Made by a program: the position numbers and the translations under genes. DNA of 64,000 nt, taken from contig OZ024740.1 of NCBI GenBank assembly GCA_964016885.1, forward strand, positions 366,234,001-366,298,000. Reading direction: 5' to 3'. Shown piece after piece: positions 10,945-62,530 of the stretch. Below the pieces are notes generated by a model. The model made no database searches, had not been told where the DNA came from, and saw nothing but the letters and a program-made list of their open reading frames with translations. Numbering within the stretch: position 1 is the first letter of the stretch; every line of letters starts with the position of its first letter. Origin of the DNA: Eledone cirrhosa. Its lineage: Eukaryota.

Positions 10945-11580
10945 TCAGTATGATGATAATGATCATGCTTATTGAGAGGGTCGTCGGGGCAGAGTCCTTA
11001 AACACTCCTACTAGCGGGTCCTGTCAGAATCAATCGTCTCCAACTGATCCGGCTGGATCCCCAAGCGAGACCAGCCAAGCTCATGGATGTTATCCAACCA
11101 TCTTGCACGGGGTCTACTCTACTATTAGTTTTGCCCGTAAAATCTGCCCGTAAAATCTGCCCAGCGATTCTTTCCTGAGACATTCTATCCACATGCCCAT
11201 AATATCAGAGCTGTGATCTCTCGATTAGGAAAAGTAGCAGCTCTACCTAGTGTGACTCTCTGATCATCGAGCTACGCAATCTATCGAGTAAGTTTATTCC
11301 AAAGACTCTTCGAAGGAACCCCATTTCGGCCACTTGTTTTTGCAATCGCATTCTTTCAGTCATTACCCAAGATTCATGACCATAGGTAAGGGTTGGCATG
11401 AATACCAAATTAACAATAGTGAGTTTTGCTTTATACCTACCCCCCTTCTGATTACTGAATGCTGAGACATGTAGAGTGCATAGCGCAGGCTTCCTTGAGA
11501 GGACGAGTGTCTCAGTTTTCGCAACACTGATTTTCATACCAGCCATGCAGCATAATGATACTTTAATCAAAACTTTTGTG
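10945..11580 (-). pseudogene. RTE-clade LINE 3' fragment
   Basis: ORF 11247-11570 has MKISVAKTETL and PTLTYGHESWVMT...AEMGFLRRV, typical RTE RT C-terminal motifs. Confidence 0.8.
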
Positions 11581-11699
11581 CTGTTATTCTTTGTGTAAGT
11601 ATATAAGCCCTACCCCCAAAATAAGCCATAGTGCTTTTTTTTAAATGAAATATAATAAGCCTTGTCTTGTAATAGGGGAAATACGATATATATATAGCC

Positions 11700-12259: not shown

Positions 12260-12472
12260 CGAAACACATGGTGTAAGACAAAACAAAGGAAAGACACAAA
12301 ATAACAAATTAGTCACTGAGGAGGTCACAGAATATGTGACGAAAGAGCTTTGACAATAAACAACCATCCAGTTATTAAATAAAAAAATTGGAAATTTGTA
12401 ATGAATTGAAATGAAAACCAACAGGTGCGTGTGTTTTTATTGGCAACATGACCCCCCCCCCCTATATATATA
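12260..12472 (+). mobile_element. solo PLE 3' end (pLTR) related to the element at 26868-29825
   Basis: agtcactgaggaggtcacagaatatgtgacgaaag and ggtgcgtgtgtttttattggcaacatgacc match 29615-29650 and 29775-29805; followed by (TA)n. Confidence 0.85.
12311..12354 (+). ncRNA. type I minimal hammerhead ribozyme motif
   Basis: gtca-CUGAGGA-g-gucaca[gaaua]ugugac-GAAA-gagc-UU-ugac. Confidence 0.75.
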
Positions 12473-12664
12473 TATAATATATATAATATTATTCAAAATA
12501 TTAATAAATGAGAAATATTATCATAACCAAAGTATATATTTTATCATACATATTTCAAAGGTACAATGGTGTTTCAGTACGTTTTCATCAGATAAAATAT
12601 ATAAGAGATTGGTTATACGACATACCACTAAGGTCTTGAATCTTCAATTCCTGTAACGCATAAA

Positions 12665-13865: not shown

Positions 13866-13957
13866 ACATATTACATATGTTTCACTGTCGATCAGCTCGA
13901 GGAATGATCTATTAGTGATCGAACCTGACTCTGGAATCGGAAGCTCCTCAGATATGT
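13866..13957 (-). ncRNA. type I hammerhead ribozyme motif with an extended stem II
   Basis: Minus strand: acauau-CUGAGGA-gcu..(about 55 nt)..agu-GAAA-cauau-GUA-auaugu; 6-bp stem I and palindromic stem III ACAUAUGU. Confidence 0.75.
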
Positions 13958-35459: not shown

Positions 35460-35667
35460 TTGAAGACTAAAATCCAAAGAGGGCTCGATAAGGATAAATA
35501 TATATCAAATATATAAGAACCGTAGATTAAATATTTATTAAAACAACAGATTAAAGTTTAAGCAAAGAATTGCTGCTTTCACCCTTAACGGGATCTTCAG
35601 AAGATCCCGTTAAGGGTGAAAGCAGCGATTCTTTGCTTAAACTTTAATCTCTTATTTTAATAAATAT
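35460..35667. mobile_element. miniature palindromic PLE footprint inverted inside a hammerhead core
   Basis: Arms 35531-35598 / 35600-35667 with a 1-nt spacer; minus strand reads CUGAAGA-uccc[guuaa]gggu-GAAA; left extension of about 70 bp to (AAT)n; right end at (TA)n. Confidence 0.8.
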
Positions 35668-50791: not shown

Positions 50792-51321
50792 ATTATCATT
50801 ATCCATTAGGGTGATGTATTGCCAGTATTGGTAGAGCAATGGACCATATGCTTTACAGCATATAGTTACAGCCCATTACATTCTAAGTTTAAATCCTGCC
50901 CTTTCACCCTATTTTTTTCTATAAATCTAGTCTTTTCTGACTAGTTTGGAGGTCCTACTCTTTGATAACACACAGAAAAAAAAGTTGTAGGGAAATACTC
51001 TTAGGAGGGTGGACTATCAGTTCTCCGGGTAAAAAGTTGATTGCCAGATCCTGGAGGTTAGATTAGTTGATAGCACACAAAAAAAAGAGGAAAACATTTT
51101 TTTTCCCACTGAAATTGAGTGGGCTGTTCTTCTATATATTTATCATATATATATATATATATACATATGTATACATATATACATATATATATATGAATGT
51201 ATGTATAGTATATTTGTCAATATATCGTATGTTTAATTAAAAGCATTTTGAAGACCTTGCGCTATCATTTTAAAGTAGTGACTATGTCACTTACTTCATT
51301 TCTCGGCAAAGAAGGGAGAGA

Positions 51322-51363
51322 AGCTGACAGATTCTGTTTCACACTGTTGGTGTTCCTCAGAGC
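51322..51363 (-). ncRNA. type I hammerhead ribozyme motif
   Basis: Minus strand gcu-CUGAGGA-acac[caaca]gugu-GAAA-cagaaucu-GUC-agc; canonical GUC site, near-palindromic stem III, short stem I. Confidence 0.75.
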
Positions 51364-51489
51364 AACGTACACCCTGCCTATACCGAAAATTATAGAGGCT
51401 GGATTCTTATAGAATTCCAGTAATAATCAGGAACTGATTATACAGAGCGATTGCCGGTCCAGCAAAAATTAAAAATTATATATATATAT

Positions 51490-51648
51490 CCATATGTGTT
51501 TGATGGCTGAGAGAAAAGAGTAGTCAATACCGAAGTAGAGTTTGGTTATTCATTTTATTAAGTGTAAACAGTGAGTCTTGTTACTCTGGAGTTTTTCCTG
51601 TTTAGGCAAAACTTCAGAGTAACAATTTAGCCTTAATAAAATGAAAAA
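51490..51648. mobile_element. miniature palindromic unit between (TA)n tracts (probable PLE footprint)
   Basis: ttcattttattaag..ttgttactctggagtttttcct / aggcaaaacttcagagtaacaa..cttaataaaatgaa; left extension of about 60 bp. Confidence 0.6.
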
Positions 51649-51659
51649 ATATATATATA

Positions 51660-51925
51660 GTGTAGTTGAATTTCATAATAAATATCCAAGTAGGTAGAGC
51701 ACTCAATCTGGGAGATGAGTTGTGTTATATAAAATATTTTATTACATCAACTGTACATTATCTGAATACATGTGTTTCACTAGGAGGATCTAAGACTCTT
51801 TAGGTTCATCAGTTCGGCTATATTGAAATGAACTATTTCAATATGGCCGAACTAATGAACTGGGAGAGTTTTAGATCCTCTCAGTGAAACATGTGTATTG
51901 GGATAAAATATTGTTGATGTAATAA
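51660..51925. mobile_element. miniature palindromic PLE footprint with a hammerhead in each arm
   Basis: Arms about 51739-51829 / 51835-51925; left arm (-) ccgaa-CUGAUGA...GAAA-cacau-GUA-uucag; right arm core mutated to CUAAUGA; left extension of about 80 bp. Confidence 0.8.
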
Positions 51926-51940
51926 TATATATATATATAT

Positions 51941-52146
51941 AACAAAGAAAGTGTGGTAAGGAACCAGGTGGACCATAACACACCAGAGTTACATTGGGTA
52001 CATTGGGTAGTAGACTGGGTAATAGGAAAAGAGTCAGGACCCTGATGGCTGAGCTCTGGCCGTATCTACAGCAAGATCCGAACAGTTTGGATCTAGCTGT
52101 CGAAACAGCCAGAGCTCAGCCGTCGGAGTCCTGACTCTTTTCCTAT
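51941..52146. mobile_element. miniature palindromic unit between (TA)n tracts (probable PLE footprint)
   Basis: Arms ataggaaaagagtcaggac...agatccgaac / gtttggatct...gtcctgactcttttcctat (52022-52146); contains cGAAAc; left extension of about 80 bp. Confidence 0.65.
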
Positions 52147-52882
52147 ATATATATATATATGCTTCTGACAGTACCCACCTGAAGGCATGCTTGAGGACTC
52201 TGCCACCTTGATACTCTCAGGAATAAATGGGCAAAAAAGAAGAAAAGATATATATATATATACATATATATATTTACAAACACAGATGCACACACATATC
52301 AGATATGAACACATAATCTCACACATACATCAGTTATACTGTGAGTAGTTTACTATTCCTACCTGGCATAAGAAACAAACTAAGAGACAATAGATGTGAT
52401 TCCCTTTGGAAATCTTAACCACTACTGACTGACTAGCGAGCAAGACAAACAGACAGATGCATTAGCCTGGGAAAACAGCCTATCTAGATAGGTTTTCATT
52501 GGTTGGATTTTGGCAAGATGGCAACTTTTTGTTCTGGTTCATTAGTTTAATGTTTGGTTCACCGGATTTCACATCAAGTTCTTTACCATTTTACTTCAGG
52601 TTTTAAGATAATGTTATTGTCGAGAATAAAGATTATTAACTCTCTCATATTTTCCCTCTTCCTTCTGTTCTACACTTTTTCAGGATTTTAGGCTAAATTT
52701 GGTATTTTACCTGAAGTAGTGTCGGCTTCTAAAACTGTATGGCATATTTGTGAGAGTGGATGTGTTAATGAGTGAGAAAGAGAGAGCATGTGTATGTAAG
52801 TGAAACTTGAACGAGGGAAAGAAATTGTGAGTGAGAGGGTACTAGAAACAGATGAAGATAGAATGTGTGTATATGTGCATGC

Positions 52883-54007: not shown

Positions 54008-56597
54008 TTAACTTTGATAACTTTGATAGGTTTCGGTCAGTATTGGCCCAGGCCATGTCTAACTTAATAGCACGACCTGGCGAAGTCTTTCAAATCATGA
54101 TTTGGACACCATGGCCCACTCAAGTAGAGAGTTATTGTTTATGGAGGCATATCCGGGTGTAGGAGGTTTATCCAGGATTTCTTGAAGGAATTTGTCCGAA
54201 GACTTCTTGAACTTGATGGGGTCTGTCTCTGCTTTGATGTGTTTTGTGTAATGTTAAAGAGAGTGGGGCCAATTGAGGTGAAATAATTGTGCCGTGTTGT
54301 TGTTATGAGATGCAAGTGAGATTTTTGTCGTGGGCGGATAGCACGGGCCCCAAGCCTTGGGTGTACCTTAAAGGTGATGCCAAAGTTGATGGATTATTTT
54401 CCACATCATGCAGATAATGTAGCACTCACGGTGACTTTGGAGAGAATAAAGGTTGAGCTTTTCTAATCGACTCCAATAGTCAAGGCTTGTCATGCCATCT
54501 ATCTTTTTTGTAATTGATCTTTGGGGTGCTTCAACTTTCATGATTCTTTGTTTCATGTGGGGAGACCACAGTGGACAACAGTATTCAAGGTGGGGTCAGG
54601 CAAAAGTGGAGAAGAGAAGGATAACAGTGTGGATATCTCTTGACTGGATGGTTCTGAGAATCCAGAACACATTCTGTGGGTCATGTCAACTTTGCTGTTT
54701 ATATGAGTGGCCCAGCTTATGTTGTTGTCCACAATTACTTCCAAGTCTCTGTTGGACGCCACAAGAGATTCACCTGATGCCACGAGAGTTTCACCTGAAG
54801 GACGAGAGTATGGGAATTTCAGAGCATCCTTTTTTCCAAAGTGGATTAACTCGAACTTATCCTCATTCAACAGCATATCTTTCTTTTCTGCCCATTGGAT
54901 AACAGCCAGTGGGTTTGACTGAAGACAAGTCTGGTCACCCACCTCATTAATGATCCTTTGGAGCCTGGAATCATCTGCGAAGATTCTTATGTTGCTGTGC
55001 TTGATGATGTCAGTAATGTCATTAATGTAGATGATGAAAAGAAGTAGGCCCAATACTGTGCCTTGTGGGACGCCACTGCTGACTTTGGCTGGGCTTGATT
55101 TTACTCCTTCGACTACAACATGTTGGGCTCTGTCTGTCAGGAAACACTTGATCCACTGTAGTAACTTTCCAGAGACACCAATATTGGATAGTTTTTTTCA
55201 ATAGAATCTTATGATCAACCCTGTCAAAGGCCTTGCTGAAATCAAGGTAGATGACATCAGTGTTGGAGTCCTCTCCCAAGCTCTCAAAACATCATCAAAG
55301 TGATGCAGGAGCTGCATTAGGCAGTCCCTTCCATTATGGAACCCATGTTGGTTCGAGAAAGTGGGTTATTCGTGATCTCAGCACCCTCTCAAATACCTTG
55401 ATGATATGAGAGGTGAGTGAGATTGGACGGTAGTTCACTGCAAGGGACTTATTTCTCTTTTTGAAAACTCAGACAACGGACTGGGACAGAAAGTTTTCGG
55501 GAATATAGCCAGTATCCAGTGAGTTCCTCCACAGATTAGCAAGAGGAGATGCAAGTTGGTGTCGACACACCTTCAAGACACAAGCAGGGAACCTATTGGG
55601 GCCTACTGCTGAATTGTGTTTAATTTTGTTTATTGCCGCTAAGACATCAGAGGCGCCAAACGTTATGTCCGATATAGTGTGTTGGGGATTAACATCACTG
55701 ATACAGCCCAGATCGGCCATATCAGGATTGCTGAAAACAGAGCAGTATTGTTTCTGCAGTATCTCACCTATGGTTTTGGCATTATCTTGGAGTGTGCCAT
55801 TTTCATCAACTAGGGGGCAAACAGTAGAGACAGTGACCTTGTGTTTTTTTACAAATGAAAAGAACACTTTGGGGTTGAGTTTGATTTTCTCAATGGCCCA
55901 CTTCTCTTCAGCTGTTCTTTGGTTATTGATGATGGTCTTCATGCGTTGCTGGAGATTATATTTATTTGATTCAAGCAGGGAAATAGCCGTTGAATGTGTG
56001 TGTTGCTGTTGGCAGTATTTTAGTGTGTTCATTTTTTTGTTTGTTCTTTTTATTTTTCTGATAATAGTTTTTCTGTTTTGGAGGATACTGCACTTAGTTT
56101 TGTTCACCGGTTTTGATGGGGTGTGTTTTGTACATATATTTGTGACAGTGTCTACAAAAATCTACCAAGATGTTTTGATGTTGGTGGAAATGAGTGTGTG
56201 TGTAAAAGACCAGTCAACATGTGATAGCTTGTTCATAATTGCATCCCAGTTGGCATTATAGAGATCCATGTTATCAAATGGGTGGGCTTGAAAGAGATCC
56301 CTAGGATTAGCTTTCGGCTGGTGGAATCACAAGTTACAAAGAACCATGTCATGGTCTGAGAGAAGGGTTTTTTCCACTGTAATATTATGTATAGTGTTAG
56401 TGTGGTTACTAAACACTAGATCCAGAATGTTCTTCTGATTCCTTGTTGATGCAAGGAACAGTTGGGACAAAAAAAACTCATTCATAAAGTCGAGAAGTGA
56501 CTCGACTGTTTCTTTGTCAGCGGTTGAGGTTGGAGTCTCTGGTTTCAAACTGTTTGTAGACCAATCAACACGGGGTAGATTAAAGTCTCCCATCAAA
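54008..56597 (-). mobile_element. CR1/L2-group LINE, 5'-truncated and frameshifted ORF2 (AP endonuclease plus RT)
   Basis: GDFNLPRVDW, TRNQKNILDLVF, SDH; YLDFSKAFDRVDH, LLFIIYIND, FADD; short tandem 3' tail (atcaaagtt)2. Confidence 0.92.
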
Positions 56598-61702: not shown

Positions 61703-62530
61703 CTACTGTCCATATATCTTGAGAAAGGTCCCGGCTCTAAGGTGTCTGCATGTCCCGAAGAAGTCGGTTCTGAGGTTTATCAGGCCGCTTCCACCTCTTA
61801 GTATCTCAAGGGTCTCGTTCAGGCATAGTTTGCATATGCAAGATCCCCCTTTATCGGGTGGTACTTTCCTGATTATGTACCAGGCCAGAGAGTATGGGGT
61901 CCTGTCCAGCTTAAGCTTCCAGATCAGGTCGGAGAGAGCTGTGCTTTTCCTTTTGGCCTCCTTCTTGAATGAATGGCGATGGTTGTACCAGCGGTCTTTA
62001 AAGCTCGTTGATGTGGCTCCTATGTAGAGGTGTTCGGAGTTGGGGGTTTTAACCCTACAACCATATACTAGGTTCTTCTTGAGGCATTCATTACCAAGGG
62101 GGCATGATTCAGGGTTTCTGCAGTTGCAGAGGGTGGTCGGCCTCTGCGTGCCTAGATTAGGGTTCCCGTTATGTGTTACATGTTGGTCTTCCCCCAGGCT
62201 CGGTGGGGTGTCCTCGGGTCTGTTTGGGTTTCTTGGGTGGGCTCTGGGTCCCCCCTTCCCTCCTTTCACATGGTTCTGCTGAGTGTTTGTATTGCCATCT
62301 TCTGGTTGTGTGTGGTTTTTAAGTCTACTTCTGTTGATGCTTGCTATGTGTTGGGCCAAATTTCTCATGGTGGAATACGAGAGCTTCACGGTGTGTCTGT
62401 TGAAGATCCTGTGGTATCTGTGGTCCCTCGGTAAGCATTTGTCAAGTGCTCCAAAGAATAATCGGGCCAAGCTTTTCTTTAGGGCCGCTGAGTAGGGCGG
62501 GTTGTACCACGTGATTTTCGGTGTCTTCTC
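61703..62530 (-). CDS. 5'-truncated Naiad-like PLE linker plus GIY-YIG endonuclease
   Basis: KITWYNPPYS, RIFNRHTVKLSYSTM, CNC....CPL..EC...NLVY, YIGATSTSFKDRWYNH, LS..IW.LK, CKLCLNE, LIN.R...TCRH; frame is open from 62530; RT is absent. Confidence 0.88.
   Translation of the reverse strand, partial: EKTPKITWYNPPYSAALKKSLARLFFGALDKCLPRDHRYHRIFNRHTVKLSYSTMRNLAQHIASINRSRLKNHTQPEDGNTNTQQNHVKGGKGGPRAHPRNPNRPEDTPPSLGEDQHVTHNGNPNLGTQRPTTLCNCRNPESCPLGNECLKKNLVYGCRVKTPNSEHLYIGATSTSFKDRWYNHRHSFKKEAKRKSTALSDLIWKLKLDRTPYSLAWYIIRKVPPDKGGSCICKLCLNETLEILRGGSGLINLRTDFFGTCRHLRAGTFLKIYGQ

Follow-up and report, generated by a model that had tools for sequence, protein, structure and literature searches.

Near 51.2-52.3 kb of the window (the whole 64,000-nucleotide stretch of Eledone cirrhosa DNA that was analysed), short units are strung along a TA repeat, which raises the question of what these units are, how they came to share one repeat, and how the hairpins among them were formed. 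An earlier sequence-only reading had divided the locus into five units separated by (TA)n, and all five were found, with TA tracts between them, at the following positions.

51133..51194, no strand: TA/CA-rich microsatellite, left end of the train.
51194..51478, minus strand: U1, which covers ~285 bp of a unit that measures ~306-323 bp and is repeated in tandem, head to tail; its 3′ end is at the left.
51323..51363, minus strand: minimal type I hammerhead of U1, with the predicted cut between 51326 and 51325.
51490..51648, minus strand: U2, a tail (51490-51545) followed by inverted arms.
51660..51925, minus strand: U3, with a tail (51660-51737), a left arm (to 51834), and a right arm (51835-51925).
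51941..52146, minus strand: U4, with a tail (51942-52021), a left arm (52022-52083), and a right arm running from 52084 (the A of AGTT) to 52146.
52160..52247, plus strand: U5, the last 87 bp of a LINE, consisting of the final codons and a GAA tail.
51477-51489, 51649-51659, 51925-51941, 52146-52161, and 52248-52276, no strand: internal and right TA spacers.

Folding of the plus strand gave z-scores of -8.6 for U2, -16.6 for U3, and -11.8 for U4, identifying all three as hairpins far beyond chance, and of -0.7 for U1 and -0.3 for U5, neither of which folds unusually. The arms of U2, U3, and U4 are 79%, 81%, and 87% complementary, respectively, and the unpaired left-arm extensions described earlier for these three hairpins were confirmed (~57, ~78, and ~80 bp). 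Each of the five units was found to be a member of a dispersed repeat family; searches of the 3.0 Gb genome returned 2032 candidates for U1, 1459 for U2, 171 for U3, 5309 for U4, and 1811 for U5, of which 40 were scored for each unit. The units had been called unrelated, and they do belong to separate families, but a GYRCTC tail motif is common to the U1-U4 families, and U3 and U4 derive from the same type of Penelope-like element (PLE). The train is made of short broken ends from several common mobile elements lying in one TA repeat.

U3 and U4 were identified as the 3′ ends of PLEs, longer copies of which encode RT plus, at the C-terminus, a GIY-YIG endonuclease. Long U4-family copies contain, in order, the RT, a Cys motif, a GIY-YIG-type endonuclease, ~840 bp of non-coding sequence, the hammerhead, and the tail; in their translations, a CNCPDRSSCPLNNRC-type Cys-rich, Zn-finger-like motif is located between the RT and the GIY-YIG domain. 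When tblastn probes for the RT and endonuclease, taken from a neighbouring PLE in locus L214, were applied to 20 loci picked by the U4-family endonuclease, the endonuclease probe matched 20/20 and the RT probes 9/20. In another locus (L212), an RT C-terminus and an endonuclease are followed by the U3 match. The Atlas returned two leads for the probes, GIY-YIG (0.95; 23% of members have PF01541) and RVT_1 (0.91; 19%); Pfam gave no significant hit for the PLE endonuclease and RT fragments, and a PDB sequence search returned one weak retron RT hit only (E=0.16). Extrapolated genome-wide, the U4 family accounts for ~93,000 tail ends (65,000-129,000).

U2 has the same anatomy as U3 and U4, and an inverted 5′-truncated copy with a tail at one end is present in all three families. 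Longer U2-family copies, fetched to ~480 bp, extend into a putative 3′ UTR and matched neither RT nor endonuclease; for U1, too, the search yielded no coding parent. The suggestion that the units are 3′ ends of PLEs held up in the genome-wide search for U3 and U4 through their RT/endonuclease parents, for U2 by its anatomy, and broadly for U1, but failed for U5, which is a LINE end. Type I hammerheads of the PLE pLTR type, together with the inverted 5′-truncated structure, were found in U3- and U4-family copies, as had been expected. On sequence grounds, the PLE reading appears to be right for U2-U4, and broadly so for U1.

Coding pieces were also observed elsewhere. A 275-aa frame at 61703-62530 of the window (minus strand) resembles the Cys motif and GIY-YIG endonuclease of the U3/U4 type of PLE. 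At L214:2923-5950 and L211:2809-5066 there are further multi-element trains, in which long stretches of RT/endonuclease from different PLE families follow one another, either across TA or with nothing between them. Frames at L211:6474-7314 (plus strand) resemble the N-terminal part of a Helitron protein.

The U1 family consists of short, non-coding, head-to-tail units that each carry a type I hammerhead, and 13/16 start-motif spacings measure 310-323 bp. It is likely a non-autonomous PLE derivative of the non-LTR retrozyme-like kind. U1 is 92-95% identical to its closest copies and is, therefore, probably the youngest unit of the train. It was also observed that U1 (51194-51478) begins at its family's proximal start site and reaches the distal one of the following monomer, which amounts to one unit minus its ~35-bp tail. 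U5 has neither a hairpin nor a hammerhead; the GAA tail is present in 28/28 copies of its family, TA follows only 3/28, and the family is not TA-targeted. Its upstream frames contain FADD and a C-terminal RG-rich motif, and are putatively RTE-like; Pfam gave no RT hit for the piece scanned. Decayed LINE RT fragments are present in the window at 54553-56161 and 11247-11609 (both minus strand), and the piece at 11.2 kb resembles the U5-family upstream frame.

The GYRCTC motif was found at the distal ends of 21/29 U1-, 19/30 U2-, 8/16 U3-, and 106/135 U4-family copies, compared with 78/2966 unlabelled flanks (2.6%). Read in antisense within the first 85 nt from the distal end, it is present in 9 of the 20 families described below, U1-U4 included, and is nearly absent from the 11 others; on the sense strand it often lies inside TTGAGTRCTCT. 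It is a candidate protein-binding site.

U1 contains a complete minimal type I hammerhead core on the minus strand (CTGAGGA at 51360, GAAAC at 51340, and the GTC cut site at 51326), in which stem I (GCT/AGC) is followed by CTGAGGA, stem II (ACAC/GTGT), GAAAC, a short stem III, and GTC; this core is intact in 19/30 family copies. U3 has one core in each arm, CTGATGA at 51812 on the minus strand (core span 51812-51767) and a mutated CTAATGA at 51852 on the plus strand (51852-51897). Only the GAAAC half is retained in U2 and U4. The U2 fold lies inside hammerhead stem II, with loss of the CTGATGA half, and longer copies of its family have a complete core. In the parent of the U4 family, the hammerhead combines a long stem II with a core of the U3-A8 kind (TTGATAA). 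A further candidate core, CTGATGG at 52042, was rejected, as it is the decayed CCGACGG of a palindrome arm.

The two clear cores and two remnants claimed in the sequence-only reading stand on inspection of motifs and stems and on family copies, but an Rfam scan of the units gave no hammerhead match (miRNA hairpin models matched below threshold only), and 0 cores inside the train passed a strict descriptor with four-pair stems. The same descriptor passed 5/30 U3-family loci and 9/30 long U4-family loci, and gave 68 hits in 1.16 Mb versus 1 after shuffling. Because half of the core has been lost from most hairpins, the term "ribozyme hairpins" appears to overstate their activity. Elsewhere in the window (~13870-13955, minus strand), the strict descriptor is passed by a type I hammerhead that is complete and whose stem II is long.

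In the U1-U4 families, the copies have a constant left end that adjoins TA: (TA)3+ directly precedes the tail end in 27/29 U2-, 17/26 U3-, 27/28 U4-, and 15/29 U1-family copies, against a background of 17%. The frequency of trains was estimated from an unselected sample of 116 stretches of 10 kb at round-number positions (1.16 Mb). TA-flanking sequence was clustered, and 20 families were defined by paired distal and proximal ends, with a hammerhead in only some of them and coding parents checked in few, so that "PLE-type" is presumptive for the rest. Window self-hits and near-duplicate loci (19 loci) were dropped, internal TA-like sites of two families were excluded, and 87/185 distal ends could be paired with a proximal end. 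Of 1660 TA tracts, 367 (22%) adjoin a PLE-type end on at least one side, and occupancy rises with tract length. The earlier idea of repeated hits in TA tracts by several PLE families is supported. Both sides were occupied in 39 tracts. The number expected is 24.9 on a global basis (p=0.004), 28.7 when tracts are binned by length (p=0.02), and 31.8 when the comparison is confined to the same 10 kb (p=0.07). The anticipated clustering is only 1.6-fold on the global scale and shrinks to 1.2-fold within 10-kb stretches; this slight excess over independence shows that some local preference exists. The sample contained 27 two-unit and 6 three-unit trains, and extrapolation to the genome gives ~480,000 tail ends for the 20 families and ~3,400 trains of at least four units. 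The train studied here is an upper-tail yet expected case, ordinary for this genome and not special.

The sequence-only reading had gone further and proposed a polarised array, built by co-oriented insertions that perhaps restore the TA tract, which might act as an integration trap or as a source of multi-family dsRNA/small RNA. In its favour are the shared orientation of U1-U4, the 1.6-fold global excess of double occupancy, the rise of occupancy with tract length, and the head-to-tail arrangement of 9/11 same-family neighbours (p=0.04). Neighbours of different families, however, are head-to-tail in 35/74 cases (0.50 expected, p=0.73), or in 8/21 when both units are fully resolved, so that polarity between families is not supported. 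These counts were made from pooled random and family-centred loci, leaving out the U1 family and treating tail- and arm-facing ends symmetrically. A first count (16 head-to-tail versus 32 opposed) was discarded, since tail-facing ends had been admitted more easily than arm-facing ones. Four co-oriented units are expected with a 1-in-8 chance, ~430 trains of at least four co-oriented units are extrapolated by chance, U5 points in the opposite direction, and the excess within 10-kb stretches is 1.2-fold only (p=0.07). A special trap is unneeded with so small an excess and so many trains, and the proposal is very improbable.

The same-family head-to-tail bias (L030, L097, L163, L178, L207, and L273) is a hint of multi-unit insertion or local duplication. 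In the window, a two-family pair shares a TA tract at 12462-12485, and a TA-flanked hairpin unit is found at 35505-35663. A search for empty sites matched 6/217 units, none at a true empty site, and the best candidate is a different repeat. PLE origin of the units, together with passive accumulation in TA tracts, can be held with high confidence.

The structure of the hairpins themselves provides clues as to how they were made. Their outer ends lie at two fixed places per family, 57-80 bp from each other, and the longer arm may be either of the two. The units span the ribozyme cut site, and the folds concentrate at the hammerhead. Among 36 unselected tail ends of the U4 family, 34 stop within 60 nt of the cut site; subfamily B diverges from the cut-site reference, and unit lengths of 131-209 bp in 21/23 agree with this count. 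The outer end of the inverted arm was fixed in 16/17 U4-family copies from the random sample and in 19/24 from a tail-only search.

Another reading is that the hairpins are MITEs of DNA transposons, or palindromic masters that propagate themselves and keep their junctions fixed, and the 40 best U4 matches do share nearly one junction. That set, however, was selected by similarity, and junctions vary among copies sampled at random or through the tail only; the hairpins are therefore not MITEs. The fixed terminal inverted repeats and fixed internal structure of a MITE were not found; the tail is asymmetric, being attached to one arm, the junctions vary, and the parents encode RT. This explanation is largely refuted.

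In the U4 family, it is often the arm without a tail that is the longer, and the two arms are therefore best regarded as two separately primed cDNAs rather than a simple snap-back product. In vitro, a PLE protein was found to cut AT-rich DNA on both strands and to start reverse transcription at two internal RNA sites, the spacing of which equals the tail, and ribozyme cleavage was not required (PMC11167929). A tailed hairpin is probably two short cDNAs joined head to head.

A stop motif was first noticed in the U4 family, in which it reads TTAGTT or TTAGTC (TTAGTC in the longer copies of subfamily B); at that time two U2-family arms had already been seen stopping at AGTT. Of 67 U4-family arms passing position 13, 47 end at positions 13-19, with the motif A at 18, and 15 run past position 22, reference copies included; 21/54 U4-family rows continue past the motif. 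For the U2 family, the TT that precedes AGTT comes from longer copies, which were retrieved once the AGTT stops had been noted and which read TTAGTT. Among 45 U2-family arms reaching the core, a sample selected for reaching about position 12-14, 29 reach position 14, of which 22 stop at 14-16 (the A is at 16) and 7 go further. Arm ends of the U3 family are widely spread, and a noisy automatic test for a shared stop motif in 17 other families found none; parents picked automatically, likewise a noisy procedure, gave no common motif either.

The next base is C in 7/10 U2 arms that stop at the motif A (p=0.004 at 0.25), with at least 4 of these 7 Cs also readable as the first base of the next joined segment. 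In three U4 hairpins (L066, L073, and L159), both arms reach the A and are separated by a single central C:G pair; a "free" C after the stop was seen in 6/19 U4 cases, which is not significant (p=0.16). Seven other U2 arms (L095, L105, L352, L353, L356, L363, and L368) end one base short of the motif A, and their next base is A, four of them with AC. We take TTAGT to resemble the initiator element consensus. PLE pLTRs are reported to carry promoters or initiator-like motifs (PMC2377424, PMC3846280), and an untemplated G has been read as a copy of the cap in L1 (PMC9341517). That a capped RNA 5′ end causes the arms to stop is quite conceivable, though we place it just short of an even call.

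Two other causes of the stop have to be weighed. RT may stall within the structured ribozyme, after which self-priming or microhomology would join the ends; PLE origin and passive accumulation would be retained, and no special RNA 5′ end would be needed. Most U4 arms end in the 3′ strand or loop of the long stem II, with a spread of ~8 nt, and U2 folds are spread through the core, both as expected from stalling, and self-priming on an antisense template has been proposed for PLE junction palindromes (PMC3846280). Both arms belong to one subfamily in 61/63 hairpins (the two apparently mixed ones were unconvincing on inspection), and the arms share 20 minority variants, slightly above a shuffled mean of 11.9 (maximum 21), which likewise favours this reading. 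Against it, the U2 stop is sharp-edged and located outside stem II, upstream of the core; the longer arm may be either one, and the two arms of one copy (distance 0.126) differ nearly as much as separate copies do (0.137). Stalling is, on balance, unlikely, though a serious contender. The TTAG could instead represent an intron 3′ splice site, in which case the stop would be a processing boundary of spliced or partly spliced PLE RNA. In the D. virilis Penelope, the end of the intron was mapped to the 5′ terminus of helix I in the hammerhead (PMC4209133), which is the position of the U2-family TTAG, and CTAAT is found ~14 nt upstream in the U4 parent. The arms, however, usually continue 1-2 nt past the AG boundary and match the genomic sequence there, and no common upstream exon follows the boundary. 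We consider splicing improbable.

The capped-end reading can be expanded into a mechanism, which we put forward tentatively and regard as somewhat less probable than the capped stop itself. PLE RT would prime on both nicked strands near the cap, one at the distal RNA site and the other at the proximal site, and run off after 60-150 nt, copying the cap as C. Both cDNAs would be short and, in the U2 and U4 families, would often end at a fixed RNA 5′ end, namely the A of TTAGTY, where a capped transcript likely starts, either within the hammerhead or a little upstream of it. Joining of the two strong-stop cDNA ends, head to head, would then be done by the cell. Each insertion would split a TA tract into two targets, so that trains would build up passively as units entered the same tract one after another. 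The template required by this run-off model was not seen, because the 4/4 long U4-family copies that were extended are all 5′-truncated, and none has a 5′ pLTR, hammerhead, or tail. Taken as a whole, the train is reasonably likely to represent the 3′ ends of four TA-seeking PLE families and a LINE end, inserted sequentially, with tailed hairpins derived from joined cDNAs.

How PLE insertion is completed, and how head-to-head repeats with a one-sided tail originate, are stated as open questions in the literature (PMC8557442, PMC11167929). The testable lead offered here comes from the many tailed mini-palindromes and the site at which their arms stop, rather than from the 51.2-52.3 kb train itself. 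A single family provides ~10^5 natural junctions for studying PLE insertion, and the proposal makes base-level predictions for the start site, the cap-derived C, and the join between the two cDNAs. If true, run-off would be a general abortive route explaining head-to-head pLTRs and tails, and, in this genome, would have helped to place tailed mini-palindromes, hundreds of thousands of them, in about one-fifth of the TA microsatellites. These would resemble MITEs or miRNA hairpins, but would be retrotransposon by-products; the sub-threshold Rfam miRNA matches and lack of a hammerhead match mean that such units are easily misfiled as either.

Several of the components are already published, including PLE hammerheads, tails, inverted copies, close pairs of opposite-strand hammerheads, and the microsatellite bias. 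A literature search, with most subscription papers, Repbase, and supplements outside its scope, found no description of run-off mini-hairpins. A repeat annotation of Octopus vulgaris lists Penelope families, and the word "hammerhead" is absent from its main text (PMC13282606); PMC12602865 contributed nothing further. The U1 family is like the non-LTR retrozymes (bioRxiv 10.64898/2026.07.22.740005) in its short, non-coding, head-to-tail units, type I hammerhead, and partial monomers; this likeness is drawn from sequence, and the circular RNA, self-cleavage, and mobilising PLE of retrozymes are putative features for U1.

The hammerheads share with the minimal PLE hammerheads of Cervera and de la Pena (2014, PMC4209133) the type I topology, short helix I, long helix II, an additional base where stem II begins on its 5′ side, and the U3-A8 variant. 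In Schistosoma, opposite-strand hammerhead pairs are reported 100-700 bp apart (PMC4209133). Unlike the published ribozymes, most copies in the window lack half of the core and are known by sequence; that paper, as drawn on here, describes neither where arms end nor TA trains nor a site of run-off. The PAc Poseidon PLE studied in vitro by Frangieh et al. (2024, PMC11167929) similarly has an AT-rich target, cutting and extension of both strands, two positions inside the RNA at which RT starts and which set the tail, and an RNA template that is left uncut. Its two start sites lie 85-92 nt downstream of the cut and a tail length beyond that, whereas those of U2-U4 lie ~20-35 and 90-107 nt downstream; the main text of that paper holds no account of how the two cDNAs end or join.

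Naiad PLEs, which have been reported in Octopus, also prefer (TA)n, but they have an N-terminal endonuclease and no hammerhead, the opposite of the U3 and U4 parents (PMC8557442). The putative layout of these parents fits the Neptune/Nematis type rather than Naiads, and does not separate Neptune from Nematis. Like the endonuclease-positive PLEs of that type (Craig et al. 2021, PMC8557442), they have an RT that precedes a GIY-YIG domain, which is C-terminal and has a Cys motif just upstream of it, and the families share with them heavy 5′ truncation, an inverted 5′-truncated copy, a tail at one end, a pLTR hammerhead, and the microsatellite bias. The tails differ, measuring 57-88 bp in many families here and 30-40 bp there (PMC8557442). 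Also unlike Neptune/Nematis, the main product here is a tailed palindrome of 130-300 bp without coding DNA, present in ~10^5 copies for one family.
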